From Lachnospiraceae bacterium (GTDB lineage: Bacteria > Bacillota > Clostridia > Lachnospirales > Lachnospiraceae): a stretch of DNA of 64,000 bases. Made by a program: the position numbers and the translations under genes. Location: NCBI GenBank assembly GCA_045617945.1, contig JAZLJS010000101.1:11529-75528 (forward strand), given 5' to 3'. Positions 8,131 to 49,167 of the stretch are shown piece after piece. A model generated the notes under the pieces. It was given only the letters and a program-made list of their open reading frames with translations. It was not told the DNA's origin and did no database searches. Each line of letters opens with the position of its first letter. Position 1 is the first letter of the stretch.

Positions 8131-8132
8131 AG

Positions 8133-8206
8133 CGTGTGCTAGAGGATTCGAACCCCCGACCTTTTGGTCCGTAGCCAAACGCTCTATCCAGCTGAGCTAA
8201 GCACAC
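8133..8206 (-). tRNA. tRNA-Arg (anticodon ACG)
   Basis: Hand-folded cloverleaf, 74 nt. Acceptor GTGTGCT/AGCACAC, D arm GCTC..GAGC, anticodon stem TTTGG/CCAAA with loop CTACGGA, T loop TTCGAAT. Confidence 0.9.
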
Positions 8207-30278: not shown

Positions 30279-30307
30279 TTGACATAGTAAATTGCCTATA
30301 ATATAAT
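30279..30307 (+). promoter_or_regulatory. Consensus sigma-A-type promoter for the tRNA cluster
   Basis: TTGACA (30279-30284), a 17-nt spacer, then TATAAT (30302-30307), about 47 nt upstream of tRNA-Pro. Confidence 0.7.
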
Positions 30308-30353
30308 GATTTGTGCGTCGCGAGCGGGTAGCGGCAAGCAGGCAGCACTCTTT

Positions 30354-30428
30354 CGGGGTGTGGCTCAGCTTGGCTAGAGCGCCTGGTTTGGGACCAGGAG
30401 GTCGCAGGTTCGAATCCTGTCACCCCGA
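30354..30428 (+). tRNA. tRNA-Pro (anticodon TGG)
   Basis: Hand-folded, 75 nt. Acceptor CGGGGTG/CACCCCG, anticodon stem CCTGG/CCAGG with loop TTTGGGA, T loop TTCGAAT. Confidence 0.9.
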
Positions 30429-30435
30429 TGTATAT

Positions 30436-30509
<74 letters not shown>

Positions 30510-30583
30510 TTTGATTTGCAGAACATGAACAAATGCGACGTAGTCAGTTATTTCTGTTTGCAAATCGTGTTTGTTATGTATAT

Positions 30584-30658
<75 letters not shown>

Positions 30659-30717
30659 CTGCCAATAAGAATAATTGTTGGCGCCTTTGATTGGACGCAT
30701 TTCCGATTCAATCGCGT

Positions 30718-30789
30718 ACGGCTATCGCCAAGCGGTAAGGCACAGGGTTTTGATCCCTGCATTCGCTGGTTCGAATCCAGCTAGCCGTG
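30718..30789 (+). tRNA. tRNA-Gln (anticodon TTG)
   Basis: Hand-folded, 72 nt. Acceptor ACGGCTA/TAGCCGT, D arm GCC-AAGCGGTAA-GGC, anticodon stem CAGGG/CCCTG with loop TTTTGAT. Confidence 0.9.
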
Positions 30790-30806
30790 TTGGCACAAGC
30801 CAGAAT

Positions 30807-30879
30807 GGGATACTAGCTCAGTCGGTAGAGCACCTGACTTTTAATCAGGTTGTCGGGGGTTCGAATCCCCCGTGTCTCA
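30807..30879 (+). tRNA. tRNA-Lys (anticodon TTT)
   Basis: Hand-folded, 73 nt. Acceptor GGGATAC/GTGTCTC (with G-U pairs), anticodon stem CCTGA/TCAGG with loop CTTTTAA. Confidence 0.9.
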
Positions 30880-30890
30880 CGAACGAAAAA

Positions 30891-30935
30891 CCCTTGAATT
30901 TACTGCGGTAGACAGTTGTTCAAGGGCTTTTTTAT
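30891..30935 (+). terminator. Terminator after the tRNA cluster
   Basis: CCCTTGAA ... TTCAAGGG (20-nt loop) followed by CTTTTTTAT. Confidence 0.6.
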
Positions 30936-31005
30936 ACCGATTTTTACTTAACGCATTAATTTATTTTTCTTTCTTTATGACGAATAAGATTTGAATCCGA
31001 GAGTA

Positions 31006-31112: not shown

Positions 31113-32426
31113 ATGGACAAATACTTTAAACTTACTGAGAACGGTAGTAATATTCGGACCGAGATTTTTGCCGGACTTACGACTTTTATGACAATGGCAT
31201 ATGTGCTTGTATTGAATCCTACATTCCTGTCAGCAACCGGAATGGATTGGAATAAAGCATTTTCTGCAACGGTTATTTCTTCGTTATTTGCGTGTTTGGT
31301 GATGGGATTGTATGCAAATCTTCCGTTTGCATTGGGACCGGGTGTCGGAATCAGCGCTTTCTTTTCTTATACCGTTTGCATTGGCATGGGATATTCCTGG
31401 AAGTTTGGGCTGACCGCGGTTTTTATAGAAGGAATCATATTCTTACTGATGTCGGTTTTCAAAATCCGTGAAGCAATTGTGGACAGTGTTCCGTTGTTTC
31501 TGAAGAAAGCAATCAGCGTCGGAATAGGTTTTTTTGTTGCATTTATTGGACTAAAGAATGCAGGGATTGTTGTGGCAGATGAAAGCAATTTTGTTAAGCT
31601 CTCACCAAACTGGTTGTCGGGGAGTTCGTTAGTTGCACTTATAGGACTTCTATTGACAGGCACATTATTGATCCGAAAGGTAAAAGGCGCATTACTGTTG
31701 GGAATGTTTATTACGACAATCATTGGCATTCCGTTTGGTGTCACTACTTACGCAGGTGGCAGTTATTGGCCAACTTCTCCGTATTTTTTCGATTTTGCAT
31801 TTGACGAGATTATGGCGAATGGTAAATCTATTATAGATTTTCTGGTTATTACGTTCGTCTTTCTGTTCAATGATATGTTTGATACGGTAGGAACCTTAAT
31901 AGGTTGTGCAGGCAAGTCAGGAATGGTCCGTGAAGATGGAAGTATTCCCAACTGCGGGAAAGCGTTGTTTGCAGATGCTGTCGGTACAACGGTGGGTTCG
32001 ATTTTGGGAACATCAACGATTTCCACATTTGTTGAATCATCGGCCGGTGTTGTTGCCGGAGGGCGTACCGGTCTTACTGCATTTGTAACGGCGGTTTTGT
32101 TCGGCTTGTCACTGTTTCTGTCCCCGATTTTTGCATCAATTCCGTCGGCAGCAACAGCTCCCATTCTGGTAATTGTCGGTGTGATGATGGCTGAGCCGGT
32201 GCGGGATATTGATTTTACTCAGGATATGGCTGAAGCGATTTCTGCATTTTTGACAATCATTATTATGGTGTGTACTTCGAACATTTCTAATGGAATAATG
32301 TTCGGAATCATCGGCTATGTTATTTTGAAAATTCTTAGCGGTCGCGTTCGTGAGATCAGTAAAATGGTTTGGGTATCATTCGGTATGTTCGTGTTTAATG
32401 CTGTAATGACGATTTTATCGTTCTAA
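31113..32426 (+). CDS. NCS2-family purine (adenine/guanine/hypoxanthine) permease, AzgA/PbuG type
   Basis: From the ATG at 31113: MDKYFKLTENGSNIRTEIFAGLTTFMTMAYVLVLNP, the typical N-terminus of this family. 12-14 TM segments. Confidence 0.85.
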   Translation: MDKYFKLTENGSNIRTEIFAGLTTFMTMAYVLVLNPTFLSATGMDWNKAFSATVISSLFACLVMGLYANLPFALGPGVGISAFFSYTVCIGMGYSWKFGLTAVFIEGIIFLLMSVFKIREAIVDSVPLFLKKAISVGIGFFVAFIGLKNAGIVVADESNFVKLSPNWLSGSSLVALIGLLLTGTLLIRKVKGALLLGMFITTIIGIPFGVTTYAGGSYWPTSPYFFDFAFDEIMANGKSIIDFLVITFVFLFNDMFDTVGTLIGCAGKSGMVREDGSIPNCGKALFADAVGTTVGSILGTSTISTFVESSAGVVAGGRTGLTAFVTAVLFGLSLFLSPIFASIPSAATAPILVIVGVMMAEPVRDIDFTQDMAEAISAFLTIIIMVCTSNISNGIMFGIIGYVILKILSGRVREISKMVWVSFGMFVFNAVMTILSF

Positions 32427-32533
32427 TAGCAGCAGAAAGTCGAGGTACAACAGGTTCTTTTTTATAGAAAAGAGGAGTGCTTTCTGGGTTTTGCGAGGTA
32501 GTATGCAGCATTCCTGTGAAATGGAGCGTTAGT

Positions 32534-34654
32534 ATGATTAATTTGCTTATTATTCAAAATTTATCTGAAATTCAGAATAATTCATATTGTGATACGTCGG
32601 GTTTGTGGAATCGTTTTGACAAAAAGTGTGTGTTTATTACCCGCGATAATTTGGATATATTATCTCAATCAATTGATGATAGCCAGTGCATTGTGTTTGC
32701 TTCGAACTGTCTTCGAGATGAGCAGATTTTGAAGGCATTTATGTCCGATGAGATTCGGAAAAAAATGGCAGATTTCGTCAAAAGAGGGAACAGCTGTCTG
32801 TTTCTTCATCAATTGATGCCTGATGGAACCGAATTGAATTTGTTTGATGGAATTGACGAACTTAGCTTCACAATTAAGAAGAATGCGGATAAAAACGGTA
32901 ATGGTTTGCTGGAGTTTTCTTCTTCTTTGTATTTGGCATATCAATGCTTCCCTAATGAACTTGATTTGAAAGAAATATATAACCGTTCGAGAGAATTTGT
33001 GTTTGTGCCAGGGATATTTTGGCATACGTATTACTCTCCGTCAATGATGTTTAATGCGATTCTTGAAGACTCAGATCATAATATTTTGATTAGCGTAGCC
33101 AAGAATTATCCTGTGATTTATGCCAGCATGATTCTTGATTGGCAGCTTCAAAAGGAACTTTTGGAGAATTTGATTACGAATCTTTATAGTGGTGGGAAAT
33201 GCATAGGTATTGTACATGATAAAGAGAATAAGGATATTTCCTATATGGAACTTACCAATTCCCTAAATGAGAGAAAGGTATGTTTCTATGTATATGATGC
33301 TTCTTCAGAAGCGGATCTTTTGCTTATGCGAAAAAGAATTGATTCCAAATGCCATTCGATGATTCTTTTAGATACGGATGTATTGGATTTGAATGGTGAG
33401 ATTTATGAAAAGTGTTATAAACAAGGTATTAATTGTATCCGTATAAATGCAGATTCATTACATGAATATGATAAAACGTTGGTTTGGCATGATAATTATC
33501 AGGCCAGTTATCAGATGCTTACCCAACTGGAAATAGAAGTTCAAAAAGTACTTGGTAATATGCTAATAGAGAATAGTTTTTCCACTACAATACAAGTGCT
33601 TAAGTTATTGCTTGATAGTGGGAAACCTTCCGGTAATTATGAAATTGAAAAACTTCAAATCGTGATGGATTATATTGAAAAACATCTTATGAGTGATGGG
33701 TCATATGATTATACATTTGGCGCAACGTGTAGAATGCTATGGTTTTTTAAACGTATTTGTAAGCAAAACAATCCGATTGTAGCAAAGCGGATTGCTGCGG
33801 CTAAAGCGTGGTTGAAGAATATGAATACGGATTTGTTCAGACCTCGAGAACTGATTGAATTAGCGTATGCTTGTGATGAGGATTTGAATAGTGCGCTTGA
33901 AAAATGTTTTCAATATGATTTAGATGCGGAAGCCACGGTTTATGATCTTATTGAAATGGGATCCTTGGCGCAAAAACAACAGCGATATGATTTGGAACGA
34001 ATATGTATAGAAAAACTGGTTGCACGTAAGGAGTCAATTGGGTATTCCGAAGATGAACTGATGAAGTTCTGTATGATTTTGACCCGCTTTATCGCGAAAG
34101 GCAGATTTATCAATGCAGAAGAAAAGGATAAATATTCAGCGCTCTTGGTTTCAGGAATAAGTGATTTGCAGAGCTGGGATCCGATAGGTAAAAACATTGC
34201 GAAGAATATTGAAAAGTGCCTCTTGTTTATTGAATATGAGAAATTGATTCATCATCCGATTGATACAATATTAAAGCTGCATGAAGTGGGCGATGGAAGC
34301 ATTTCGGCCAAATTACATGATCATGTCAGTATGATTGAAGATTATCGTGTTGATGTTTATGTTCAAGGAAAGCAAATTGAAAATTTGCGAAATAAGAACA
34401 GGAATCTTTCTGTATTTAAGAATGCATTTTGGATTGCAGTGATTTGCATGATCCCGATAATATATCTTAGTATCTGGTTATTGGTTTGGTTAGGGGAAAA
34501 TGCTAAACTGGGCGAGATGTTTCGTGATATAATTGTTTCCTACTGGCAATATCATACGGTCCTTGTGTCAGCATTGGTAGCGGCTACATCCGGAATTGTC
34601 AGCCGGATTATCAAGAAGAACTCTGAAAAGCATTTGGACGAATTGGAGAAATAA
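32534..34654 (+). CDS. Orphan 706-aa protein with two C-terminal TM helices; no family recognised
   Basis: ATG at 32534 lies 7 nt after GGAG. AT-rich. N-terminal strand/helix region (QCIVFASNCL...GNSCLFLHQLM), a central helical-repeat region (SDGSYDYTFGATCRMLWFF), and C-terminal FWIAVICMIPIIYLSIWLLVWL and TVLVSALVAATSGIV. Confidence 0.7.
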   Translation: MINLLIIQNLSEIQNNSYCDTSGLWNRFDKKCVFITRDNLDILSQSIDDSQCIVFASNCLRDEQILKAFMSDEIRKKMADFVKRGNSCLFLHQLMPDGTELNLFDGIDELSFTIKKNADKNGNGLLEFSSSLYLAYQCFPNELDLKEIYNRSREFVFVPGIFWHTYYSPSMMFNAILEDSDHNILISVAKNYPVIYASMILDWQLQKELLENLITNLYSGGKCIGIVHDKENKDISYMELTNSLNERKVCFYVYDASSEADLLLMRKRIDSKCHSMILLDTDVLDLNGEIYEKCYKQGINCIRINADSLHEYDKTLVWHDNYQASYQMLTQLEIEVQKVLGNMLIENSFSTTIQVLKLLLDSGKPSGNYEIEKLQIVMDYIEKHLMSDGSYDYTFGATCRMLWFFKRICKQNNPIVAKRIAAAKAWLKNMNTDLFRPRELIELAYACDEDLNSALEKCFQYDLDAEATVYDLIEMGSLAQKQQRYDLERICIEKLVARKESIGYSEDELMKFCMILTRFIAKGRFINAEEKDKYSALLVSGISDLQSWDPIGKNIAKNIEKCLLFIEYEKLIHHPIDTILKLHEVGDGSISAKLHDHVSMIEDYRVDVYVQGKQIENLRNKNRNLSVFKNAFWIAVICMIPIIYLSIWLLVWLGENAKLGEMFRDIIVSYWQYHTVLVSALVAATSGIVSRIIKKNSEKHLDELEK

Positions 34655-35497
34655 ATGTTTATTGTTTTAGGCGTAATTTTTGGTGTTTTTGTGGCAATAA
34701 CAAAAGGAATAGATACTTCAATCAATAAGTCTCTTATGGGAACCACTTCAGCGATTGATCATTCGCTGTATCGTATTCTTTTTGTTACACCTGTTTTGTT
34801 TATTGCAGCTCTTTTTCATTGGCAGATTTCAGTGGCATCTATAGGATGGTTATTGGCATATGGGGGCTTGGAAACTGTTAATATATTAACCCATCAGCTT
34901 GCGATTAAATCATTGAATTCTGTACATGCTGAGATTTTGTCCAAATCCAAGTCACTTACAACTTACATATTGAGTTTGATTTTGGTTGTTGAAAGCGTAT
35001 CGGTAAAAGGTGTCCTGGGCATTGTTATATTTACGGCCGGTATGCTGATTACTATTGATTTTAAGGAATTGGACTGGAAGAAATTCAGTTCTTTTCAGGG
35101 ATATTTGTTTGAGATAATTTCTGTTCTGGCGAGGACCATAAAGCCGTTTATTCTTTATAAATTGTTATCAGAGGGCTCTATTAGTAATGAAGTGCTGGCC
35201 TTTTTGAGTATGCCGATTGCCTTTGTGTTTATTTGGATTATTTTCAGACCTAAACTTAGTTTCAAATCAATTAACGTGAAGGGATATGTTGCACAGGCAA
35301 TAATTGTAGGCCTTTCTATGATTGCGTCCGGATATGCCATTTTATACGCCGGTGCTGTGATAACTTCAATGGTTGAAAATCTGTCGATATTTGTGGTTTG
35401 CATTATTTCATATTTCATGGTAAAGAAAAAACCCGAATATACGGTATGGATTGGCGCGACATTGGCGATTATCGGTGTGATTTTGGTATCGGTCTAG
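34655..35497 (+). CDS. Polytopic membrane protein, DMT/EamA-like (about 10 TM)
   Basis: 280 aa, hydrophobic throughout, with a two-halves organisation. The ATG directly abuts the TAA of the upstream ORF (34652-34654 / 34655). Confidence 0.6.
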   Translation: MFIVLGVIFGVFVAITKGIDTSINKSLMGTTSAIDHSLYRILFVTPVLFIAALFHWQISVASIGWLLAYGGLETVNILTHQLAIKSLNSVHAEILSKSKSLTTYILSLILVVESVSVKGVLGIVIFTAGMLITIDFKELDWKKFSSFQGYLFEIISVLARTIKPFILYKLLSEGSISNEVLAFLSMPIAFVFIWIIFRPKLSFKSINVKGYVAQAIIVGLSMIASGYAILYAGAVITSMVENLSIFVVCIISYFMVKKKPEYTVWIGATLAIIGVILVSV

Positions 35498-35630
35498 TTT
35501 CTTTTTGAAAATATGATTGATTTGAATAGAGAAAAGTTTTTGTTAGTTGAATTGATTGGGGAAGTTCTTGTTTTTCAAATTCATTTATGATACTATTCTC
35601 TTGCAATAAGCTTTAAGGAGGTATATTACT

Positions 35631-35801
35631 ATGGCATTTGTTGTTGATGATAGCGCATGTGTAGGTTGCGGTGCTTGTGAAGGCGCTTGCCCTACAGGAG
35701 CAATTAAAGTAGAAGGAACAGCATCTATCAATCCTGATGATTGTGTAAGCTGTGGCGCTTGTGCAGGAACATGCCCTTGTGGCGCTATTAACGAAGGTTA
35801 A
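35631..35801 (+). CDS. 2x[4Fe-4S] clostridial-type ferredoxin (56 aa; too short for the ORF track)
   Basis: My translation: MAFVVDDSACVGCGACEGACPTGAIKVEGTASINPDDCVSCGACAGTCPCGAINEG. It has two CxxCxxCxxxCP motifs. AAGGAGG lies 9 nt upstream. Confidence 0.9.
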   Translation: MAFVVDDSACVGCGACEGACPTGAIKVEGTASINPDDCVSCGACAGTCPCGAINEG

Positions 35802-35828
35802 TATTTAAATTTCCTGAAATTTTTGAAA

Positions 35829-35858
35829 GGGAATCGGCGATGCCGGTTCCCTTTTTTG
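35829..35858 (+). terminator. Rho-independent terminator after the ferredoxin gene
   Basis: GGGAAtCGGC-gat-GCCGgTTCCC followed by TTTTTTG. Confidence 0.75.
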
Positions 35859-36031
35859 TTATGGCGACGAAGAGAATAGACTTCGTGCTTGCACGAAAGG
35901 ATATTCGACGACCGCTAATCATAGATGCTGCTCGCGAAGCGGATTCCGAATGATAAGGAATTCGGAGAGTTCCGATAACAAAAATATAATTTGCAAGCGA
36001 CGCATGCCTGTTTGCATCACTCATTGTGGCC

Positions 36032-36080
36032 GGAATATGTTGTGGATGAATGGAATATGTTGTGGATTAACGGAATATGC
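36032..36080. repeat. Tandem repeat, 20 bp x about 2.5
   Basis: GGAATATGTTGTGGAT(G/T)AA(T/C) is repeated. Confidence 0.8.
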
Positions 36081-36146
36081 GCGTTTGGTTTACATAAAGT
36101 CACATGTGCTTTCGTGTCCTGTGTCTGGAGAAAGAAATCTGAGTTC

Positions 36147-36335
36147 ATAGACACAAAATGGTTTACATAATTCCGCACCACCAAACGATTCAGGTCGCTT
36201 TTGTGTCTGAAATGATAAAAAACGGAATCTAGACACAAAATTAGTAAAACATCAAGTTTACATAAAATCACCCATTTCATTTTTGTGTCTACGCAGCTTT
36301 AAAATCTGTTATAGACACAATTATAGTTTACATAA
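36147..36335. repeat. Cluster of AGACACAA/TTGTGTCT inverted motifs and GTTTACATAA direct motifs
   Basis: TTTTGTGTCT-N22-AGACACAAAA (36199-36240) and TTGTGTCT-N22-AGACACAA (36283-36320). GTTTACATAA at 36161, 36256 and 36326, with another copy at 36088. Confidence 0.8.
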
Positions 36336-36360
36336 CGCAAACCTGCATTACAATCCGAGT

Positions 36361-36417
36361 GAAATTACGATAATATGGATCGAAATTACGATAATATGGA
36401 TTGAAATTCAATAATCG
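36361..36417. repeat. Tandem repeat, 21 bp x about 2.7
   Basis: GAAATTACGATAATATGGAT(C/T) at 36361 and 36382, plus a partial third copy. Confidence 0.85.
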
Positions 36418-36579
36418 GCTTGACATATTGTGTATTGATGATATCATATTGATATCAAAAATAATCATTGTGTTCCAAACATATATCAGAAACGCCGCAA
36501 ACATAGCATCGCTACGCAGCAAATAGATGCTTTGGAACATTTTGAGTAGATCGGTATGAGACGTGAAAGGAGTTTTATT

Positions 36580-37560
36580 ATGGAAGAGAAAATGTTAAAC
36601 GGTAAAAAGAACGGAATGGCAATGCTTTTATTACTTATTTTATTGATGGCAGGATCAATTGCAGGAATGATATTCGGCGGCGTGAATGGATGGGGATGGC
36701 TGGTCGCTCTGTCGATAATCATATTGATTACATCATTTATTTTGTTGGCCGGTTTGACGGTATTGAAGCCGCAGGAGGCGGTTGTCCTTACTTTGTTCGG
36801 TAATTATGTCGGAACATTGAAAGGTGAAGGTTTCTACTATGTAAATCCTTTTTGCAGTGCTGTGAATCCTGCAGCGAGAACGCGTCTTTCTCAAAGCGGC
36901 GATGTAAGAGATAATTCTGCGGCAACAGCTGCTGCAGAAGGATCTTCCAAGAAACTTTCATTGAAGATAATGACCTTGAATAATTCCCGGCAGAAAATCA
37001 ACGATTGCCTCGGTAATCCTGTTGAAATCGGTATTGCGGTTACATGGAGAATTGTTGATACGGCTAAAGCAGTATTTAACGTAGAGAATTACAAAGAATT
37101 CTTATCATTGCAGTGCGATACCGCACTTCGTAACATTGTTCGTATTTATCCTTATGATGTTGCTGAAAATGTGGATACAACAGGTGACGGAATTGCAGAT
37201 GAAGGTTCTCTTCGCGGATCCAGTGAAGTAGTTGCGGCCAGAATTAAGGAAGAGATTCAGAAACGTGTTGAGGAAGCCGGTATTGAAATTGTAGAGTCCA
37301 GAATTACTTATCTTGCATATGCACCTGAAATTGCTGCTGTTATGTTGCAGCGCCAGCAGGCTTCCGCTATTATTGATGCCAGAAAGATGATTGTTGATGG
37401 TGCCGTTGGTATGGTGGAGATGGCAATCGATCGATTGAATGAAGGCGGTCGCGTAGATCTTGATGAAGAACGTAAGGCTGCGATGGTATCGAATCTGCTG
37501 GTTGTTCTGTGCGGCAATCATGATGCTCAACCTATTGTGAATTCCGGAAGCTTATATTAA
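36580..37560 (+). CDS. SPFH/band-7 domain membrane protein
   Basis: ATG at 36580 lies 7 nt after AAAGGAG. Two N-terminal TM helices. SPFH core ([54 protein letters not shown]) and a C-terminal coiled region. Confidence 0.8.
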
Positions 37561-38108: not shown

Positions 38109-38996
38109 ATGGATGCGAATGCTACTGTCTCAAGTATTGCTGTTGCGGCAATGATATTTACGTTGGTTGTATCAATCGGTGTTCCGATTGTATTGATGAT
38201 TGTTTGGAAAGTCAAAACAAAAGCATCGTTGGTTCCTTTTGTAATCGGTGCCGGAACTTTTATTGTATTTGCATTAATTCTTGAATCTATTATGCATCAG
38301 ATTGTCCTGGGGGCAACGGGTGATTCCATAACCGGTAATGTTTGGCTGTATGCACTGTACGGCGGCCTTGCGGCAGGTGTTTTTGAAGAGACCGGACGGT
38401 TGGTGTCAATGAAATTTCTGATGAAGAAAAGCCTGAGCAAGGAAAACGGCATCATGTACGGTATCGGACATGGCGGAATAGAGGCCATTATTATTATCGG
38501 ATTATCGTATATCAGTAATCTTGCCATGACCTTTGTCATTAACTCAGGTATGGTTGATACGATCAAAACAGGAATTCCTGAGGCGGATCAGGCGGTGATG
38601 CAGGCGGTGGATGCGCTGGTTACGACGCCTGCTTGGCAGTTCGCATGTGCCGGAATAGAGCGAGTGAGTGCGATTACGTTGCACATTTGCCTTTCCTATT
38701 TCGTATATCGTGCGGTTAAGGATTCCAAATGGATTTATTATATATTGGCAGTTGCCATTCATGCATTTGTTGATGCCGGAACTGTTTTGCTGTTAGGAAC
38801 GAGTGCGGGTGTCCTTCTGGTTGAAGTACTGCTTATTGTTTTTGATGTGATCCTGGTTGTAATTGTGGTTCGTATCTATCGTGCAGAGAAAGTCATATCC
38901 CCAGAGGGATCGCCTTACGATATTATTGAAGGCATTTCCGAGGAAACGCTTCAAAATGGTAAAGAAAATATTGATGCAGACAATTCGGAGGAATAG
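38109..38996 (+). CDS. YhfC-family intramembrane (glutamic-type) metalloprotease
   Basis: Multi-TM protein with GVFEETGRLVSMKF, ERVSAITLHICLSYFVY and AIHAFVD motifs characteristic of YhfC/CPBP-related proteases. Confidence 0.75.
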   Translation: MDANATVSSIAVAAMIFTLVVSIGVPIVLMIVWKVKTKASLVPFVIGAGTFIVFALILESIMHQIVLGATGDSITGNVWLYALYGGLAAGVFEETGRLVSMKFLMKKSLSKENGIMYGIGHGGIEAIIIIGLSYISNLAMTFVINSGMVDTIKTGIPEADQAVMQAVDALVTTPAWQFACAGIERVSAITLHICLSYFVYRAVKDSKWIYYILAVAIHAFVDAGTVLLLGTSAGVLLVEVLLIVFDVILVVIVVRIYRAEKVISPEGSPYDIIEGISEETLQNGKENIDADNSEE

Positions 38997-39165: not shown

Positions 39166-41373
39166 ATGGCTATTTTTTTGTGGATGTTAACAGCAATTAC
39201 GGTCTGCCTGGCAGGTATGGAAGTGCTGTATGTATACAAACAGAGTCCGACTCGCGAGTCGAAACTTTTACAGTTGGTGTGCTTTTGTAACCTTATTCAG
39301 GCTACAGGAAACATGGAAGCGGTCATAGGACAGACTTCGGAAGCATGTTATACCGGCTTGATAATCACATATTTCGGCGGATCGCATGTTGCGTTGTTTT
39401 TCCTTCTTCTGATGTGTGAGATTGTTCATGTTAACTTGCCGAAGTGGTTTATAACGCTGTCTACTGCAATTGATGTTATCTTCATCGGACTGGCAGTTTT
39501 CGAGGATAAGCTTCATTTCTATTACAGAAGCATTTCTTACGATACAAGCGGATTGATCAGCTCCCGTACGGTTGATTTTGCGCCGGGGTTCTATGTATAT
39601 CTTGGCTTTCTTGTATCTTATTTTATTGTTATTTTGGCAATTATTATTAAAGCCCGTGCAAGAAACGCGACGGAATTCGCGCGTGTGTTCAAAGCTGTTC
39701 GAGGTTTTATGTTTGCGGCGTTTTTTTCATACGGTGGGTCGCTTGTTTCTACGATATTCAAACTACGGTATGATTTTACGGCAGCAGGTCTTTCCATCGG
39801 TTTGCTGCTCTTGATTTTGCTTGTTTATAAGTATCGTGTATATCCGATGCGTCAGGATGCCGAGGATACAATACTGAATCAGATAAACGATGTGCTCCTT
39901 TCCTATGACAAGGATGGTCACCTTATATATTGCAACAAGCGTGCGCAGGATGTTCTTCATATTGAGACGGAATTTATGTACGGAATGCCGGTGGATGATG
40001 TCAGTGATGATCTGAGCCGGGTATTGATGCTTGCTCCGGAAGAGCAGATTACGCTTGATAATCACATTTATTCCTGTTCATTGTTCAAATTTGATACGGA
40101 AGATGGCGGCACGGGTATTATTCGCTGGCTAAGGGATATTACTTTGGAGCAAAGTCAGGTAAACGAAATGATACGACTGAAGGAGGAAGCTGATCATGCC
40201 AATGAGGCCAAGTCGGTGTTCCTGGCCAGAATGTCGCATGAGATTCGTACACCGATTAATGCCATCATTGGAATGGATGAGTTGATTCTTCGAGAAGCAC
40301 AGGAAGAGTCGATTAAGAACTACGGCGTTAATATTATGAGAGCCGGCAAAACGCTTCTGTCATTAATCAGTGATGTACTTGACTTTTCCAAAATGGAAGC
40401 AGGCAAGATGTCAATTGTTGAAGATGAGTACAGCTTGTCCGCAATGTTGCGTGATTTGTCACTGATGATTCGCATGCGCGCAGAGAAGAAGGGACTTACG
40501 TATCATTTGAACGCACCACAGGATTTGCCGGAGAAACTGTTCGGTGATGAATTGCGAGTTCGACAGATTATTACGAATGTTCTTACAAATGCCGTGAAAT
40601 ATACGCAGAGCGGCAGCATTATGATGAGCGTGGAAGCGCTTCCGACAGGAAGCGACAAGATAGAGATGCTTGTTTCAATAAAGGATACGGGTGTTGGAAT
40701 CAAGGAAGAAGATATACCGAAACTGTTCACGTCATTTGACCGCATTGAAAATGCGGAGACTCATAAGACGGAAGGCAGCGGTCTGGGCCTTAACATTACC
40801 GATAATTTGATTCGGTTAATGGGCGGCCGGATGACGGTTAAGAGTAAATACGGAGAAGGCAGTGAATTTATATTGATTATTCCGCAGCATGTGCATGGTA
40901 CGGAAACGGTTGGCGTAATTAGTGATCAGATCAGTGAATCCGAGATGAACCGTGATAAGAATCGAATTAAGTTCAGGGCTCCCGAAGCGCATATTCTGGT
41001 GGTGGATGATAATCGTGTGAACAGAACATTGTCTAAAGCATTTTTGAAAGGTACCGATATTCTTGTTGACGAAGCGGATTGCGGTCAGAAATGTTTGGAT
41101 ATGATTCGCGACACAGCATATGATTTGATATTGATGGATCACAGAATGCCGGGATTATCCGGTGTTGAGACACTTCAGATGATGCGTATGAATACCGACC
41201 ATAAATGCGTGGGTGTTCCGGTGATTATTATGACGGCCGATGTTGGAGAAGATCGGCAATCGTATTTCTTAAGAATGGGATTTGCGGCATATATCGGTAA
41301 GCCGATGAACGCGGTGGAGTATGAGAATCTTGTCAGAACATATTTGCCGCAGGAGAGGGTTATTTTGTTGTAA
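39166..41373 (+). CDS. Hybrid sensor histidine kinase/response regulator (multi-TM plus PAS-like sensor)
   Basis: H-box MSHEIRTPINAIIGM, N-box NVLTNAVKYT, G-boxes KDTGVGI and GSGLGLNI. REC (ILVVDDNRVN, LILMDHRMPGLSG, YIGKP). Confidence 0.9.
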   Translation: MAIFLWMLTAITVCLAGMEVLYVYKQSPTRESKLLQLVCFCNLIQATGNMEAVIGQTSEACYTGLIITYFGGSHVALFFLLLMCEIVHVNLPKWFITLSTAIDVIFIGLAVFEDKLHFYYRSISYDTSGLISSRTVDFAPGFYVYLGFLVSYFIVILAIIIKARARNATEFARVFKAVRGFMFAAFFSYGGSLVSTIFKLRYDFTAAGLSIGLLLLILLVYKYRVYPMRQDAEDTILNQINDVLLSYDKDGHLIYCNKRAQDVLHIETEFMYGMPVDDVSDDLSRVLMLAPEEQITLDNHIYSCSLFKFDTEDGGTGIIRWLRDITLEQSQVNEMIRLKEEADHANEAKSVFLARMSHEIRTPINAIIGMDELILREAQEESIKNYGVNIMRAGKTLLSLISDVLDFSKMEAGKMSIVEDEYSLSAMLRDLSLMIRMRAEKKGLTYHLNAPQDLPEKLFGDELRVRQIITNVLTNAVKYTQSGSIMMSVEALPTGSDKIEMLVSIKDTGVGIKEEDIPKLFTSFDRIENAETHKTEGSGLGLNITDNLIRLMGGRMTVKSKYGEGSEFILIIPQHVHGTETVGVISDQISESEMNRDKNRIKFRAPEAHILVVDDNRVNRTLSKAFLKGTDILVDEADCGQKCLDMIRDTAYDLILMDHRMPGLSGVETLQMMRMNTDHKCVGVPVIIMTADVGEDRQSYFLRMGFAAYIGKPMNAVEYENLVRTYLPQERVILL

Positions 41374-41399
41374 TTCATTACAATACGGGGGTAGTGTTA

Positions 41400-43304
41400 A
41401 TGAAGAATAAGAAAATTGCAGTATTTGCCAATGGATGGAGTGGAGAATTTCTTAAATATGTATTGGAAGGTATCCGCAAAGAAGCTGCCAAGGACGGAGT
41501 GGATATTTTCGTATATATGACATATATATTCTTCATGGATGATCCTTTGCAGAGCAAATGCCAGTTGAATATATTCCATCTTCCGAATCCGAAAGATTAT
41601 GACGGTGCAATCATGTTGACCAATACATTTAATCTTTCTGATGAGCAGGAACGAATCCGCGCCCTTTTTCAACGAGCGGGTGTTCCGATGATTTCTACCG
41701 AAGTGAAGGTGCCTGGTATGGCATACATGGGAACCGGTAATTATCAGGGCGTTTATGAACTGGCCGAGCATTTGATTACTGTCCATAATGTGAAGAACGT
41801 CGTATACTTAAGCGGGATTAAAGGAAATGAGGAATGTGCAATCCGTAAGCGTGCGCTTTGCGATGCGTTGAAGGCACACGGACTTACGTTGACGGATACG
41901 TTACAGGGCGATTTTGGATTCTATACGGGTTATATACTGACCAAGCAGTGGGTTCAAAGCGGTAAGGAGATTCCCGATGCATTTGTTTGTGCAAACGATC
42001 ACTCGGCGATCGGGGTTTCTGCAGCGTTGTATGAAATGGGAATCAAGGTTCCCGAACAGGTTATTGTTACGGGATTTGACCGTATTACGGAAGCGATTTC
42101 TTCATTCCCGATGATTGCTTCGGTAACGAGACGATGGGATAAATTCGGCGAGAATGTATACCATGAATTATGCAAGCAGATGGAGAATCTGAATCCGGAA
42201 TTTGAGCTGGTAACTGATTCGGAGTTTGTTCCGGCAGAAAGCTGTGGCTGTAAACCGTCTGAGGAAGCAATTCATGCCCGTTATGAAATTGTACGAAATG
42301 CATATTCTTCGAGAATTTATTCGGAGAGATTGGATATTTTCTTTCAGAGCATGCGTCTGGAACTTGCTAAGGTTGAATCCAAAGAGGAGTTTCATGAAGT
42401 GGCTACGAAACTGTTTGGCGCGAATGACTTTCTCGGAGATGATTTTGCGATTTGCGTGGAACCGGCATTTTTCGAGTTGGACGACGAGAGCTATCCTCAG
42501 CGAATTCGAGGTTACAGCAATGTGATGGATGTGTTGTATGAGAAACGCGCCGGAAAAGCAATGCCTCTTCGTCAGTTCCATACCAAGGAGATTATACCGA
42601 ATTATCATAAAGCTCCGAATGACTCCAATATTTATTTCCTCGTTCCGTTGAACAATCTGCAATATATTATCGGATATGTGGTTGTTAAGAACGACGCGGG
42701 AATGATTTATGACCAGACTTTCCGTAACTGGATTATGAATATGAACACGACGTTTATTAACGTTCGACAGTATATTTTTGCGCAGGAGAGCAATCGTAAG
42801 TTGAAAGAGATTTACATGATGGATTTCCTGTCAAATATGTATAATCGTACGGGTTGCGAGAAGGTGATTTTCCAGCATGTAGAGGATGAGAAGGCTGAGG
42901 GTCGAAGCGTTCTCCTGTTATTTGCGGATATTAACTGCATGAAGAAGATTAATGATGAACATGGCCATTTAATGGGAGATCTCGCAATAAAGATTACAGC
43001 TGATGCAATGCGAAAGTCATTGCCGGACGGTTGGTTATTGGGGCGCTACGGTGGTGATGAATTTGTGGCTGTCGGACCGTGCCTGGATGAGGAAACAACT
43101 ATTGCACAGAAAAATGCCCTGGATGTTTCCATGAAGCGATATATTGAGAAACTATCATTAAGTTTTCCGTTGTCGGCAAGCGTCGGATTCTCTGTTGCGA
43201 GACCGGATGAAGAAAAGAGCATTGAAGAATATATCAGTGAAGCAGATGAGTCCATGTATGATGAGAAACAGAAAGCCCATCAGCAAATGGGATTTTCGGA
43301 ATAG
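41400..43304 (+). CDS. Diguanylate cyclase with N-terminal LacI/PBP-type (sugar-binding-like) domain
   Basis: N-terminal KKIAVFANGWSGEF... periplasmic-binding-fold pattern without a signal peptide. C-terminal GGDEF domain with an intact RYGGDEF. Confidence 0.8.
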   Translation: MKNKKIAVFANGWSGEFLKYVLEGIRKEAAKDGVDIFVYMTYIFFMDDPLQSKCQLNIFHLPNPKDYDGAIMLTNTFNLSDEQERIRALFQRAGVPMISTEVKVPGMAYMGTGNYQGVYELAEHLITVHNVKNVVYLSGIKGNEECAIRKRALCDALKAHGLTLTDTLQGDFGFYTGYILTKQWVQSGKEIPDAFVCANDHSAIGVSAALYEMGIKVPEQVIVTGFDRITEAISSFPMIASVTRRWDKFGENVYHELCKQMENLNPEFELVTDSEFVPAESCGCKPSEEAIHARYEIVRNAYSSRIYSERLDIFFQSMRLELAKVESKEEFHEVATKLFGANDFLGDDFAICVEPAFFELDDESYPQRIRGYSNVMDVLYEKRAGKAMPLRQFHTKEIIPNYHKAPNDSNIYFLVPLNNLQYIIGYVVVKNDAGMIYDQTFRNWIMNMNTTFINVRQYIFAQESNRKLKEIYMMDFLSNMYNRTGCEKVIFQHVEDEKAEGRSVLLLFADINCMKKINDEHGHLMGDLAIKITADAMRKSLPDGWLLGRYGGDEFVAVGPCLDEETTIAQKNALDVSMKRYIEKLSLSFPLSASVGFSVARPDEEKSIEEYISEADESMYDEKQKAHQQMGFSE

Positions 43305-43315
43305 GATGTGATGTA

Positions 43316-43723
43316 ATGCTTGAATTTGATGAATTTACCCAGAAGGATTTGCAAACGGTAACATCTGCCATCGAAGAATATATGGAAAGCATGGGGGCTC
43401 CGATGCGGGCGACTTCACAGGTGATGATTGCATTGGATGAAATACTTAGTAATATTGTGAAGTTTGCATATCCGGGAACTGTTGGATACGCGTCGGTTGA
43501 TTATGAACCATTGCCCGATTCGAATGGTATTCGAATTGTGTTTACCGATTATGGCGTGCCGTATAATCCGCTTTTGCAGGAAGATCCTGATATTACTCTT
43601 TCGGCTCGGGAACGCGAAGCTGGTGGATTGGGAATATTCATGGTTAAGAAAACCATGAGCGATATAACATATAGGTATGAGGATAATAAAAATATTCTTA
43701 CTATAATAAAGTTATTTGCATAA
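43316..43723 (+). CDS. SpoIIAB/RsbW-like anti-sigma-type serine kinase (HATPase_c_2)
   Basis: 135 aa. N-box-like ALDEILSNIVKFAY, G1-like TDYGVPYNP, G2-like GGLGIFMVKK. Confidence 0.75.
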   Translation: MLEFDEFTQKDLQTVTSAIEEYMESMGAPMRATSQVMIALDEILSNIVKFAYPGTVGYASVDYEPLPDSNGIRIVFTDYGVPYNPLLQEDPDITLSAREREAGGLGIFMVKKTMSDITYRYEDNKNILTIIKLFA

Positions 43724-43735
43724 AGGAGAGGAAAA

Positions 43736-44035
43736 ATGAACATTACTCAGAACAAGGAAGAAACCAAGTTAACAATTGCATTGGAAGGTCGTTTGGATAC
43801 GACAACAGCGCCTTCACTTGAGGAAGTGACGAGTTCTGCACTTGTCGATGTAAAGGAATTGATTTTTGATTTTTCGCAGCTTGAGTACATTTCTTCTGCA
43901 GGACTTCGTGTTATTCTTGCCGCTCAGAAGACAATGAACAAACAGGGCGAGATGAAAGTTGTAAAGGCAAACGAGAACATTAAGGAAATCTTCGATATTA
44001 CGGGATTTTCGGATATTATTACATTGGAAGACTGA
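43736..44035 (+). CDS. STAS-domain anti-sigma-factor antagonist (SpoIIAA/RsbV-like)
   Basis: 99 aa. LEGRLDTTTAP... and LEYISSAGLRVIL with a candidate phosphorylatable Ser. Confidence 0.8.
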   Translation: MNITQNKEETKLTIALEGRLDTTTAPSLEEVTSSALVDVKELIFDFSQLEYISSAGLRVILAAQKTMNKQGEMKVVKANENIKEIFDITGFSDIITLED

Positions 44036-44051
44036 TTGAGAGAACAGTTAC

Positions 44052-46034
44052 GTGAGTAAGAAAAGAGTTCGAAAGATAAAACGGTTGAGAAGACGGCACG
44101 TTTGGCCGCATTTATTTCTTTCACTGCTTGTGTTGATTGTTTTTAACGGTGCTTTCGTTGCGTCGGCATATCTCTTTTTTGAGAATACTTTGGAGAATAA
44201 GGTTATTTCGGGATATCAACGTATCGCGATGATCGCCGATGTTTTGAATCGTCAAAACAGTGATGAGTACATTACACAGAACCTTTTCAGCATCCGGTCA
44301 ATTATTCCGGAGATTGCATCGCTATGCGTGGTTGATGCGAATAATAAGTGTACACAGCATATCGGAACACAATTTCCGAACCTTAATGAGGCCCAGAATT
44401 TGTTGGCGTCCGGGCAGGAAATGACTTTGATTCCGTTAACGGAGGAATTGTTTATTGTTACAGACTCCGGTTCGCTGGTGATTAATCCTGCAACCGTGCA
44501 AGAGAATGTTCGTGATGTCCATGTACAGTTTGAGCGTCTTTCTTATCAGGAGGAATCGGCAACATGGAAGGCCGAAAGCTGTTGGTTTATTGTTCCTTAC
44601 GGGGAAAAGGGCGAGAAATTATGCGTTTTGTGTGATGTCGCCGTTACAAATTATGAGATAAACAGCATTGCGGTGGCATCCTTGATTGCCCTTACCCTGG
44701 CCGGATTGCTATGTCTGCATCAGATATGGGAAGTTGTAAAGATTCTGAATGATCGCCGCAAGATTCGTAAGCTTGTATACACCGATTTTTCGACCGGGGC
44801 GATGAACAGAATCTTTTTCCGTGATACGGGAGATAAACTGCTTCGGAGAAGACTCTACAGACAATATGCTGTTGTGCAGCTGCAGATGGAGAAGTACAGA
44901 AATTATTGCATGTACTATTCCGAGGAAAAGGGCGAGGATTTGCTGGAGAGAATCCAGGAATACCTTGTGAAGTTTATTAATCACAGAGAGTGCGTTGCGC
45001 ATATTGAGGCGGCTGATTTTGCACTTCTTTTGATGTACACGAATGAGACGGAATTGAATCAGCGGATAAACGGCCTGATGCAGTCCTTAAAGGGTCTGAT
45101 ACCGACCAATAAGGATTGCTTTTTGGCGGGTGTATCTGCCTGCGGTCACGAAAATGATGTAATGCATTATTATATAGAAGCAGGTGTTGCACGCCATTCC
45201 ATCAGGGATGATTCCGAAACCCGGATCTTGTGGTTTAATGAAGACCTGAAGGCTACACAGATATGGGAACGCAAGGTGGAAGACGATATGGAAGGCGCGT
45301 TATCAAGACACGAATTCCAATTGTTCATTCAGCCGAAGTACAGTGCCAAGGAAGAGAAAATTGCAGGCGGCGAGGCACTTATTCGTTGGATGCATCCGAC
45401 AGAAGGTTTTGTGTCACCCGGCCGTTTTATTCCTATATTTGAGAATAACGGATTTATTACCAAAATAGATGATTATATGATTAGCGCACTTGCTGCGGCA
45501 CAGGCCAAATGGTTGTCGGAAGGCAAGCCGATTGTCCCGATTTCCGTAAATGTATCGCGCGTTCATTTTATGCGCGATGATCTTGCGGAGCATATCTGTT
45601 CGCTTGTGGATGCATATAATGTTCCACATGAATATATTGAACTGGAACTTACCGAGAGCGCATTCTTCGATGACAAAGATGTTTTGTTACGTATTGTAAA
45701 GAAAATGCAATCGTACGGCTTCCACGTATCGATGGATGACTTTGGCTCGGGATATTCATCTCTGAATTCATTAAAGGAATTGCCGCTGAATGTAATCAAA
45801 CTCGATGCCGAATTCTTCAGAGGTTCGGATGATTTGATTGAGAGATCCAAAGTCATTGTGCGCAATACGATTGAACTGGCGAAGGAACTGGGAATGACGA
45901 TTGTCGCCGAGGGCGTTGAATACCGTGAGCAGGTTGACTTTTTGGCATCCATTGATTGCGATTTGATTCAAGGTTTCTATTTTGACAAGCCGATGCCGGC
46001 ACAGGAATTTGCCAAGAAAGCGTTCGGAGAATAA
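44052..46034 (+). CDS. Membrane-anchored degenerate-GGDEF / EAL c-di-GMP phosphodiesterase
   Basis: GTG start. Two TM helices flank an extracytoplasmic-looking domain. The GGDEF position reads IEAADF. EAL motifs are intact (EALIRW, ELTES, DDFGSGYSSL, EGVE, QGF). Confidence 0.85.
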   Translation: MSKKRVRKIKRLRRRHVWPHLFLSLLVLIVFNGAFVASAYLFFENTLENKVISGYQRIAMIADVLNRQNSDEYITQNLFSIRSIIPEIASLCVVDANNKCTQHIGTQFPNLNEAQNLLASGQEMTLIPLTEELFIVTDSGSLVINPATVQENVRDVHVQFERLSYQEESATWKAESCWFIVPYGEKGEKLCVLCDVAVTNYEINSIAVASLIALTLAGLLCLHQIWEVVKILNDRRKIRKLVYTDFSTGAMNRIFFRDTGDKLLRRRLYRQYAVVQLQMEKYRNYCMYYSEEKGEDLLERIQEYLVKFINHRECVAHIEAADFALLLMYTNETELNQRINGLMQSLKGLIPTNKDCFLAGVSACGHENDVMHYYIEAGVARHSIRDDSETRILWFNEDLKATQIWERKVEDDMEGALSRHEFQLFIQPKYSAKEEKIAGGEALIRWMHPTEGFVSPGRFIPIFENNGFITKIDDYMISALAAAQAKWLSEGKPIVPISVNVSRVHFMRDDLAEHICSLVDAYNVPHEYIELELTESAFFDDKDVLLRIVKKMQSYGFHVSMDDFGSGYSSLNSLKELPLNVIKLDAEFFRGSDDLIERSKVIVRNTIELAKELGMTIVAEGVEYREQVDFLASIDCDLIQGFYFDKPMPAQEFAKKAFGE

Positions 46035-46168
46035 GGATTATATGTGCAAAAAGTACATAAAAGTAAAATTTGTGCGTATAAATGTAAAAGAATTGTATTC
46101 TCATTGATATGGGGAATGATTAAAATGACACTAGTATTTGTGCAAGTTGTTGGATGAAGGAAGATAAA

Positions 46169-46726
46169 ATGAAGAAATTTAGTCTTTATTCGATAATAGG
46201 CGCGATCCTCATGATGGGCACACTGCTGGTGGGCTGCGGATCACAGAAAGTGGAATCTCCCGTAGTTGGTAAGTGGGCATACATCCACGATGAGACGACA
46301 GAAATTTTGAATGTTTCCGCGAACGGAACGGCTGTATATAAAGGTGATAAGTACAAAGTTGCCGATGAAAACGGATTTCTGATTTTATCCGGAACGGGCA
46401 AAGATAAGCTGAAACTTCGGTACGAGATATCCGGTGAAGATTTATATTTATACGAACCGGCCTTCTATACATTCGAAGGCAGCGAGGATCCGGAAGGCTT
46501 AATTGGAAAGTGGTCCAATCCCACAACCAAATGGAGCTTTGAGTTCTATGATGACGGTACATTCCGTGAGGACGGATATTTCCCCGGTTATTATATGCTC
46601 GATGAAGCAACATCATCTTTTAAGCTGGCATACGAAGATCATTTTGAGGATACGACCTGTTATTACAATATAGAAGGCAGAGAACTTACAGTCGAATATC
46701 CTTGGCGCATGATTCGAATGAAATAG
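46169..46726 (+). CDS. Small lipoprotein of unknown function
   Basis: Signal peptide with lipobox LLVGCGS. I chose the ATG at 46169, after GAAGGA. Confidence 0.65.
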   Translation: MKKFSLYSIIGAILMMGTLLVGCGSQKVESPVVGKWAYIHDETTEILNVSANGTAVYKGDKYKVADENGFLILSGTGKDKLKLRYEISGEDLYLYEPAFYTFEGSEDPEGLIGKWSNPTTKWSFEFYDDGTFREDGYFPGYYMLDEATSSFKLAYEDHFEDTTCYYNIEGRELTVEYPWRMIRMK

Positions 46727-46822
46727 GTGCCGAATGAATAAGTGTGATTGCGCAAAGCGCTTCACGGGGCAATGCAAGGGCGTTGCTCAAATATATTTTT
46801 TTATTTTCATAGGAGGGATAAT

Positions 46823-48178: not shown

Positions 48179-48217
48179 TTTCACCTAATATTAGTTGCAA
48201 TTTTAATTGACTAATTT

Positions 48218-48267
48218 GGTGGCTTCCCGATTCTCCGTTGGGAGTCGGGCGGCCACCATTTTTTTTT
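48218..48267 (+). terminator. Strong hairpin plus T9 (terminator/attenuator) between the SBP and permease genes
   Basis: GGTGGC..CCCGA.TCTCC-gtt-GGGAG.TCGGG..GCCACC followed by ATTTTTTTTT. Confidence 0.75.
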
Positions 48268-48280
48268 GGAAGGATCAGTT

Positions 48281-49165: not shown

Positions 49166-49167
49166 CA

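Follow-up and report, generated by a model that had tools for sequence, protein, structure and literature searches.

Organisation of the gene pair

The window analysed here is a 64,000-nucleotide stretch of a Lachnospiraceae bacterium genome (assembly GCA_045617945.1, contig JAZLJS010000101.1, positions 11,529 to 75,528 of the forward strand), and the subject of this study is a pair of adjacent genes in it, denoted as open reading frames 1 and 2 (ORF1 and ORF2), whose features are collected in Table 1. The frame of ORF1 is open from a GTG at 32477, and the ATG at 32534 was taken as the start because a GGAG lies 7 nucleotides (nt) upstream of it and the homologues align from residue 1-3. A first reading of this DNA, made from its letters without database searches and referred to below as the sequence-only reading, had described the two frames as contiguous. 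The sequence agrees with this description, as ORF1 stops at the TAA at 34652-34654 and the ATG of ORF2 at 34655 begins on the very next base. Together with the recurrence of the pair in related loci described below, ORF1 and ORF2 are a conserved, translationally coupled two-gene operon.

The protein encoded by ORF2 matched PF00892 with 50.7 bits against a cutoff of 28.2, in two stretches that form two EamA repeats, and contains about ten hydrophobic segments. The earlier suggestion that the pair includes a transporter was therefore correct for ORF2, which is similar in this organisation to permeases of the EamA/DMT superfamily such as LicB (7b0k) and the SLC35 nucleotide-sugar transporters. 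A profile built on ORF2 gave weak matches to LicB, PfCRT and SLC35B1. In contrast to these transporters, ORF2 falls into a small subfamily of only 19 clusters at E ≤ 1e-10, and all of its examined members lie directly 3' of a gene for a protein of about 700 residues.

We use the label FAM for the uncharacterised proteins of about 700-790 residues that are related to ORF1. Among the relatives with genomic context, an EamA gene of 278-282 codons was located directly 3' of the family gene in P0002, P0004, P0007 (two assemblies), P0105, P0106 and P0108, and likewise in the metagenomic locus L122. Starting from the EamA side, P0122 and P0127 each carried a full-length FAM gene directly 5' (E 1e-162 to 1e-171 with the hidden Markov model, HMM, of the family), and the stop and start codons of these pairs overlapped as ATGA and TAATG. 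The sequence-only reading had raised the co-occurrence of the pair as a point to be checked, and when tested from both gene sides the two genes were neighbours in every one of 10 distinct loci, the window included, with stop and start codons abutting or overlapping. The flanks of these EamA-type loci differed each time (UvrC/HprK/MurB, gyrase/GH25, L21/L27/Obg, SHMT/FGGY, thymidine kinase, SpoIIE/Maf and PFL-activase/QueA), and no mobile-element gene was present in them. Comparing the window with its closest pair, the permease is 75% identical, whereas the large protein is 45% identical. The conserved adjacency supports ORF1 and ORF2 as a predicted single functional unit. As a separate observation, an 813-residue protein is encoded directly 5' of the family gene in L137 (GCA_054284165.1, 1291-3732, plus strand), and this protein had no Pfam hit and no match to the FAM HMM.

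Table 1. Coordinates, in window numbering, of the gene pair, of the predicted parts of its products and of the features on its 3' side
Feature	Coordinates	Strand	Basis
ORF1 ribosome-binding site, GGAG	32523..32526	+	sequence; 7 nt ahead of ATG 32534
ORF1, 706 residues, predicted multidomain cytoplasmic protein with C-terminal membrane hairpin	32534..34654	+	ORF list, homologues, AlphaFold2
Predicted class-I glutamine-amidotransferase-fold / ThuA-like α/β domain, residues 1-222	32534..33199	+	Foldseek, sub-threshold ThuA matches, conserved residues
"Nucleophile elbow" L91-H92-Q93-L94, after strand 87-90	32804..32815	+	FAM consensus, DSSP
Predicted second small α/β domain (flavodoxin-like alternation), residues 223-321; conserved Y254 and H274	33200..33496	+	DSSP of AlphaFold2 model, conservation
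Predicted all-α domain, 13 helices, residues 322-590	33497..34303	+	DSSP, consensus motifs
GSYDYTFGATC, G389-C399, best-conserved motif of the helical domain	33698..33730	+	conservation
Soluble stalk part, residues 591-632, of a single predicted helix of about 65 residues (590-655)	34304..34429	+	DSSP
First predicted transmembrane helix, residues 633-651	34430..34486	+	Kyte-Doolittle 19-residue mean 2.5
Second predicted transmembrane helix, residues 675-693	34556..34612	+	hydropathy 1.82
ORF2 ribosome-binding site, GGAG, within the 3' end of ORF1	34645..34648	+	sequence; 6 nt ahead of ORF2 start
ORF2, 280 residues, EamA/DMT-superfamily permease, predicted dedicated partner of ORF1	34655..35497	+	PF00892, hydropathy, gene pairing
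2x[4Fe-4S] ferredoxin, 56 residues, neighbouring gene	35631..35801	+	Fer4, 2.5e-16
Strong intrinsic-terminator-like hairpin, 14 pairs and a T run; first predicted terminator after the pair	35825..35855	+	terminator prediction

ORF1 defines a rare family

ORF1 had no match in Pfam, NCBIfam, PADLOC, PHROGs or the sequences of the PDB, and had been regarded as an orphan. However, an exhaustive phmmer search of 1.84 billion cluster representatives returned 104 homologues at E ≤ 1e-3 and 69 at E ≤ 1e-10, so that the protein is not an orphan. Almost all representatives of the family are 700-790 residues long, the nearest relatives of ORF1 share 45%, 35%, 30% and 29% identity with it over the full length, and no name is attached to FAM members in the source records. 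In a word-indexed search of 5.8 billion proteins, ORF1 alone and a 60-sequence profile each recovered only the query. The indexed search thus missed every relative that the exhaustive HMMER scan found, and a result of "only itself" in such a search does not mean that a protein is an orphan.

No relative of ORF1 was found in the genome contigs or in the viral contigs of IMG/VR, and the Foldseek comparison with viral structures gave no match. When profiles of the full-length protein, the helical domain, the N-domain and the EamA protein were compared with PDB sequences, nothing significant was obtained, and the literature on ThuA-like proteins and N-acetylglucosamine (GlcNAc) and on nagA/EamA neighbourhoods yielded no description of FAM. 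FAM is a rare, uncharacterised family outside the curated libraries (Pfam, NCBIfam, PADLOC, PHROGs and PDB).

Domain architecture of ORF1

To model ORF1 we used AlphaFold2. While the single-sequence model had a predicted local distance difference test score (pLDDT) of 41 and was not usable, the model computed with 60 homologues reached a mean pLDDT of 88.3 and a predicted TM-score (pTM) of 0.72. Conservation figures given here were taken from a 60-sequence FAM alignment, in which invariant or near-invariant residues occur throughout the first 590 positions. The outline drawn by the sequence-only reading, namely an α/β N-terminus, a helical centre, a long helix and two C-terminal transmembrane helices, was reproduced by the model together with hydropathy analysis.

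In the comparison of the N-domain with the PDB by Foldseek, the top 50 matches were almost all class-I glutamine amidotransferases (GATase1), 29 of them at E ≤ 1e-3, with a best E of 5e-5 and a probability of 1.0. Over about 230 columns, where the pLDDT of the model is above 90, stand-alone GATase subunits gave a TM-score on the target of 0.5-0.6. Based on this model, the N-domain is predicted to have a GATase1/ThuA-like α/β fold. The residues N9, E12, D62, Q93, P140, W163, D202 and N212 are invariant in this domain. In class-I GATases the elbow motif is G-x-C-x-G-H-Q-L, where the Cys is the catalytic nucleophile. The FAM consensus at this position is GxGxLxLHQL, with Q93 conserved in 97% of the sequences, and ORF1 reads S87-C88-L89-F90-L91-H92-Q93-L94. 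The catalytic Cys is thus replaced by Leu both in ORF1 and in the FAM consensus, whereas the H-Q-L after the elbow is kept. C88 is a Cys one position out of register and is partly conserved in FAM. H164 (70% conserved) and D202 (98%) can be compared, as sequence positions only, with the His-Glu of the GATase triad. Because Leu stands in place of the Cys nucleophile, the N-domain does not appear to be a glutamine amidotransferase. Polar invariants, with D202 and N212 counted among them, follow β1 (Q8-N9-x-S-E12), β3 (N58...D62) and β4 (H92-Q93). Considering that these residues lie at the substrate site of the GATase fold, the model suggests that the N-domain probably retains a pocket for ligand binding or catalysis.

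Among class-I GATases, PabA, TrpG and the N-domain of GuaA resemble the N-domain of ORF1 at Foldseek E 5e-5 to 5e-3 with a probability of 1.0. Apart from the lost nucleophile, ORF1 differs from them in that it carries no synthase partner domain and has no match to them at the level of PDB sequences. The second likeness is to ThuA, which has a GATase1-type α/β fold without the catalytic Cys, as in the N-domain of ORF1, and a link to sugar metabolism. Weak ThuA matches recurred in 7 of 30 FAM N-domains and in 3 of 60 full-length members (E 2.5e-4 to 0.1, the lowest value coming from an N-domain), but every one of them was below the Pfam gathering score and ORF1 itself gave no match. ThuA proteins are about 250 residues long and soluble or periplasmic, whereas in ORF1 the ThuA-like domain is part of a longer chain with two more domains, a stalk and a membrane hairpin. 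ThuA (PF06283, "trehalose utilisation") is a subunit of the ThuAB 3-keto-disaccharide-forming dehydrogenase of Agrobacterium and Sinorhizobium (PMC8121099). Unlike in that system, no ThuB-type Gfo/Idh/MocA oxidoreductase was among the conserved neighbours in about 45 FAM loci.

The helical domain contains four copies of a G-S/T-aromatic...S/T-T/A motif, each ahead of a helix, with the consensus forms DGSFWST, GSYDEVFGATC, GxWxDxxTTA and PWxxKAST. Within the family, GSYD..FGATC is conserved better than any other motif (G389 97%, S390 97%, Y391 88%, D392 95%, F395 88% and C399 85%). The sequence-only reading had found this part of ORF1 reminiscent of α/α-toroid proteins, and the motifs do resemble prenyltransferase or terpene-cyclase repeats. 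The 13 helices and the four Gly-Ser-aromatic loop motifs are compatible with an α/α toroid, but the prenyltransferase, terpene-cyclase and LanC-like profiles (PF00432, PF13243, PF13249 and LANC_like) gave no match to the helical domains of 30 FAM members at E ≤ 10 or to 60 full-length members at E ≤ 0.1, and the Foldseek output for the whole model consisted of N-domain matches only. The toroid assignment was therefore not confirmed.

At the junction between the helical domain and the stalk, the pLDDT falls below 50 at residues 588-594, which we read as a probable flexible hinge. The sequence RNKNRN precedes the first transmembrane helix and RIIKKNSEKH follows the second, and since these positive flanks are on the outer sides of both helices, both ends of the hairpin are predicted to be cytoplasmic. 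As ORF1 also has no signal peptide, its whole soluble part would be cytoplasmic and tethered to the membrane in an in-out-in topology. The bulk of ORF1 is thus predicted to sit on the cytoplasmic face of the membrane, held by the C-terminal hairpin.

The nagA neighbourhood in the sister clades

A metagenome scan with a 23-sequence subfamily alignment returned 46 loci. When the neighbouring genes were clustered, an amidohydrolase adjoined the family gene in 26 of these loci, and it is a genuine NagA, with TIGR00221 scores of 309-381 bits against a cutoff of 225.65. A hexapeptide-repeat acyltransferase of the WcaF/Maa/LacA-like type was located within 3.5 kb in 17 loci, and in about a dozen it is the only gene separating the family gene from the amidohydrolase. 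In L122 the gene order is family gene, EamA and a BadF/NagK-like kinase. In a neighbour-joining tree, all EamA-paired members fell into one clade and all nagA-paired members into the others. The folds of ORF1 are known ones and the transporter superfamily of ORF2 is an ordinary one; the architecture of about 700 residues with two exclusive partners is, as far as our searches show, undescribed.

The wider flanks of the nagA-type loci are unrelated to one another (IS110, NrdD, helicase, SMC-like ATPases, dGTPase and HemY), so the conserved unit consists only of the family gene and its partner genes. These conserved neighbours, namely nagA, the sugar O-acetyltransferase and the NagK-like kinase, hint at a role in amino-sugar metabolism rather than in defence. 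Compared with described nag operons (nagA/nagB/nagK/nagE and nagP/nagX), the resemblance is that most FAM members adjoin an equivalog-level nagA and that one EamA-type locus has a NagK-like kinase. The difference is that no nagB, phosphotransferase system, NagC/NagR or glycosidase is conserved with FAM, and that the locus in the window is without a nag gene. To our knowledge the protein of about 700 residues has no counterpart in the described nag operons, and the literature search likewise found none.

In a small sample of nagA-type loci, we also observed defence-island-like or mobile genes next to the conserved unit (L107 1329-5540, L102 1722-4187, L104 4563-5789 and L096 10224-12815). The genes there encode an SMC-like protein of 791 residues with a dGTPase similar to the anti-phage dGTPases (197 bits, where the cutoff is 400), an SMC_N/AAA_23 ATPase, an IS110 transposase and a DEAD/ResIII helicase.

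Proposed function of the pair

The explanation that we prefer, although we hold it tentatively and with somewhat less than even confidence, is that the pair consists of a membrane-face protein that binds or processes an amino sugar and of a dedicated permease to which it is coupled. ORF1 would bind or process an N-acetyl-amino sugar, or a compound closely derived from one, where its partner permease opens to the cytoplasm. It would pass the compound to the permease or take it over from there, and ORF2 would move the bound compound, or its product, across the membrane. An N-acetyl-amino sugar or a close derivative seems the most likely ligand because the other clades are fixed beside nagA, usually with the O-acetyltransferase, and because one EamA locus has the NagK-like kinase.

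Several points weigh against this explanation. A substrate-specific signature was found in neither protein, ORF2 did not match any curated functional DMT subfamily, and the locus in the window has no nagA, nagB or nagK. The link from the nagA clades to the EamA clade is guilt by association across 20-30% identity. The ThuA matches are all below the Pfam threshold, and the searches left the predicted helical domain unassigned to a fold class. The loss of the Cys is also compatible with a structural or regulatory pseudoenzyme, and physical contact between ORF1 and ORF2 is a partnership predicted from the gene pairing.

The alternative that ORF1 is a pseudoenzyme acting as a regulator or scaffold is unlikely in our judgement. 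The Cys-less GATase-like domain would sense a metabolite, and the tethered ORF1 would gate or stabilise its partner, the DMT permease here and NagA elsewhere, with no chemistry of its own. Such a role fits the replaced nucleophile, the long stalk and membrane tether, which resemble those of signalling or scaffold proteins, the faster evolution of the large protein, at about twice the rate of its partner, and the combination of one conserved core with two alternative partners. On the other hand, eight invariant and mostly polar residues at the active-site position of the GATase fold suit catalysis as well as binding, and no DNA-binding, kinase or other output domain was found in ORF1.

Considering that the DMT superfamily includes flippases of lipid-linked sugars, the pair could instead modify envelope glycans, which we regard as improbable. 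Here the toroid-like helical domain would hold an amino sugar linked to polyprenyl phosphate and the DMT partner would flip it, in a manner similar to the modification and flipping of lipid-linked sugars of the ArnD/ArnEF type. The G-S-aromatic...T motifs stand ahead of alternate helices as in prenyltransferase repeats, ORF1 is tethered to the membrane, and an acetyltransferase and a deacetylase are neighbours elsewhere in the family. However, the 30 members searched at E ≤ 10 matched neither Prenyltrans nor SQHop_cyclase, and Foldseek did not demonstrate a toroid fold. Moreover, the deacetylase beside these genes is NagA at the equivalog level, an enzyme with soluble GlcNAc-6-P as its substrate, and no glycosyltransferase is conserved nearby.

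Returning to the amino-sugar proposal, a wider form of it, which we consider rather doubtful as a whole, would make FAM the missing membrane-face component of amino-sugar metabolism, a Cys-independent enzyme or receptor of the ThuA fold that is obligately associated either with NagA and the O-acetyltransferase or with a DMT permease. FAM would then serve a new route by which anaerobic Firmicutes and many environmental bacteria take up, recycle or export an N-acetyl-amino sugar or a lipid-linked form of it. If FAM proteins bind or convert GlcNAc-type compounds and need NagA or the permease for this, nag pathways would gain a new membrane-associated step and one DMT subfamily would gain a substrate. 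The confident predicted structure, the invariant polar residues and the two mutually exclusive conserved partners provide a testable entry point.

Base composition and the questions of transfer and defence

The sequence-only reading had described both genes as more AT-rich than their surroundings. This was borne out by calculation, since the GC content is 0.355 for ORF1 and 0.365 for ORF2 against 0.438 +/- 0.031 in the 42 remaining genes (z -2.7 and -2.4), and nowhere in the window does the tetranucleotide composition deviate more than at 33-36 kb (z 3.2). The GC content is below average at all three codon positions of both genes. Across the family, 22 of 23 loci had a family gene with a lower GC content than the remainder of the locus, and one was a tie, in hosts of 27-69% GC. 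As this holds in nearly all hosts, the AT-richness is a trait of the family and not proof of recent transfer; the bias may result from amino-acid composition, codon use or repeated transfer. A low GC content relative to the flanks can thus be characteristic of a gene family without indicating recent transfer.

The five-tRNA cluster reported at about 1.6 kb from the pair was confirmed, with five tRNA genes at 30353-30880, 1.65 kb upstream. A gene for a permease of the xanthine/uracil family lies between this cluster and the pair, and its best match among 185,579 species genomes is 67% identical, so that these genomes include no near relative of the host and gave no synteny of use. No integrase and no ORF of integrase size is near the pair, and no 13-mer is common to 30301-30950, which contains the tRNA cluster, and 32401-37000, so no att-like repeat was found. 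Homologues were present neither on 72,556 plasmids nor in 50,697 phage records, nor in IMG/VR, and PADLOC gave no match for either protein at E ≤ 1. The idea that the pair had been acquired horizontally is therefore weakly supported: its compositional deviation is real, but the same bias recurs across the family, and integrase, att repeat, and plasmid or phage matches are all missing. The possible defence role that had been raised with it was not supported, as there is no PADLOC match and the flanks are housekeeping genes.

That the pair is a horizontally acquired defence or accessory-island module is thus very unlikely: it would account for the composition, the tRNA cluster upstream, the different neighbourhood in every genome, the rare and patchy family and the IS110 transposase, SMC-like ATPases, dGTPase or helicase beside some nagA-type loci, but it is opposed by the missing PADLOC or PHROG match, plasmid or phage homologue and integrase or att-like repeat, by housekeeping flanks such as UvrC/HprK, gyrase and L21/L27/Obg, by a low GC content that is a family property in almost all hosts, and by the failure to find a nuclease, protease or pore-forming effector domain.

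Two other regions of the window also deviate in composition. The most AT-rich gene of the window encodes an Rce1/CPBP-like intramembrane protease (8642-9442, GC 0.307, z -4.3, GC at third codon positions, GC3, 0.251) and adjoins a lone tRNA-Arg(acg) gene (8132-8206, minus strand); the tetranucleotide z at 7-10 kb is 2.0. Acquisition as a small islet is more plausible for this region than for the ORF1/ORF2 pair. A second compositional anomaly spans 46000-50000 (tetranucleotide z 1.7-2.3) and contains genes at 46748-48178 (GC3 0.335), 48266-49165 and 49168-50037.

Neighbouring genes and other features of the window

Between the upstream permease gene and ORF1, neither a predicted terminator nor a stable or structured RNA was found. 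On the 3' side, the ferredoxin gene was considered as a third member of the module and was rejected, as it is absent 3' of the pair in L081, L083, L130, L131, L133 and L137. The sequence-only reading had placed about 700 bp of repeat-dense non-coding DNA after the ferredoxin, and this region was found as 754 bp in which no ORF is convincing; it contains two short tandem arrays and scattered repeats of 12-20 nt. These repeats are located in the spacer upstream of an SPFH/Band-7 gene (36556-37560), where a 20-nt unit occurs 2.5 times (36031-36079) and a 21-nt unit 2.7 times (36361-36415). In the same spacer (window 36031-36447, plus strand), TAGACACAA repeats exactly 82 nt apart and TGGTTTACATAA is present in three copies. 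The spacer repeats are followed by the region's best promoter-like site (TTGACA-16-TATCAT with TG, 36420-36447). The spacer at 36031-36447 has the appearance of a series of sites for regulator binding. Directly behind the ferredoxin terminator, a sub-threshold match to the Rfam Clostridiales-1 RNA begins (RF01699; window 35854-35983, plus strand, model positions 1-166). It scored 37.6 bits, below the gathering score of 48, with E 1.5e-5; it could be a divergent member of this RNA family and is a hint at a Clostridiales-type Firmicute as the host.

The sequence-only reading had also compared the N-terminal pattern of ORF1 with that of the long frame at 6-2498. This kinship was rejected, since the frame, which runs from the start of the window on the plus strand and encodes 830 residues, is a DUF5057 protein (PF16480, 3.3e-33) unrelated to ORF1, with an hhalign probability of 0.5%. 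A DUF5058 gene is present 4 kb on the 5' side of the family gene in the related locus L081. Further downstream in the window, a YhfC-type intramembrane metalloprotease is encoded at 38109-38996, followed by a run of signalling genes on the plus strand (39166-46034) that resembles a cyclic di-GMP (c-di-GMP) module. These genes encode a hybrid histidine kinase of the 7TM-receptor type that includes a receiver domain, a periplasmic-binding-protein-GGDEF protein and a GGDEF-EAL protein.

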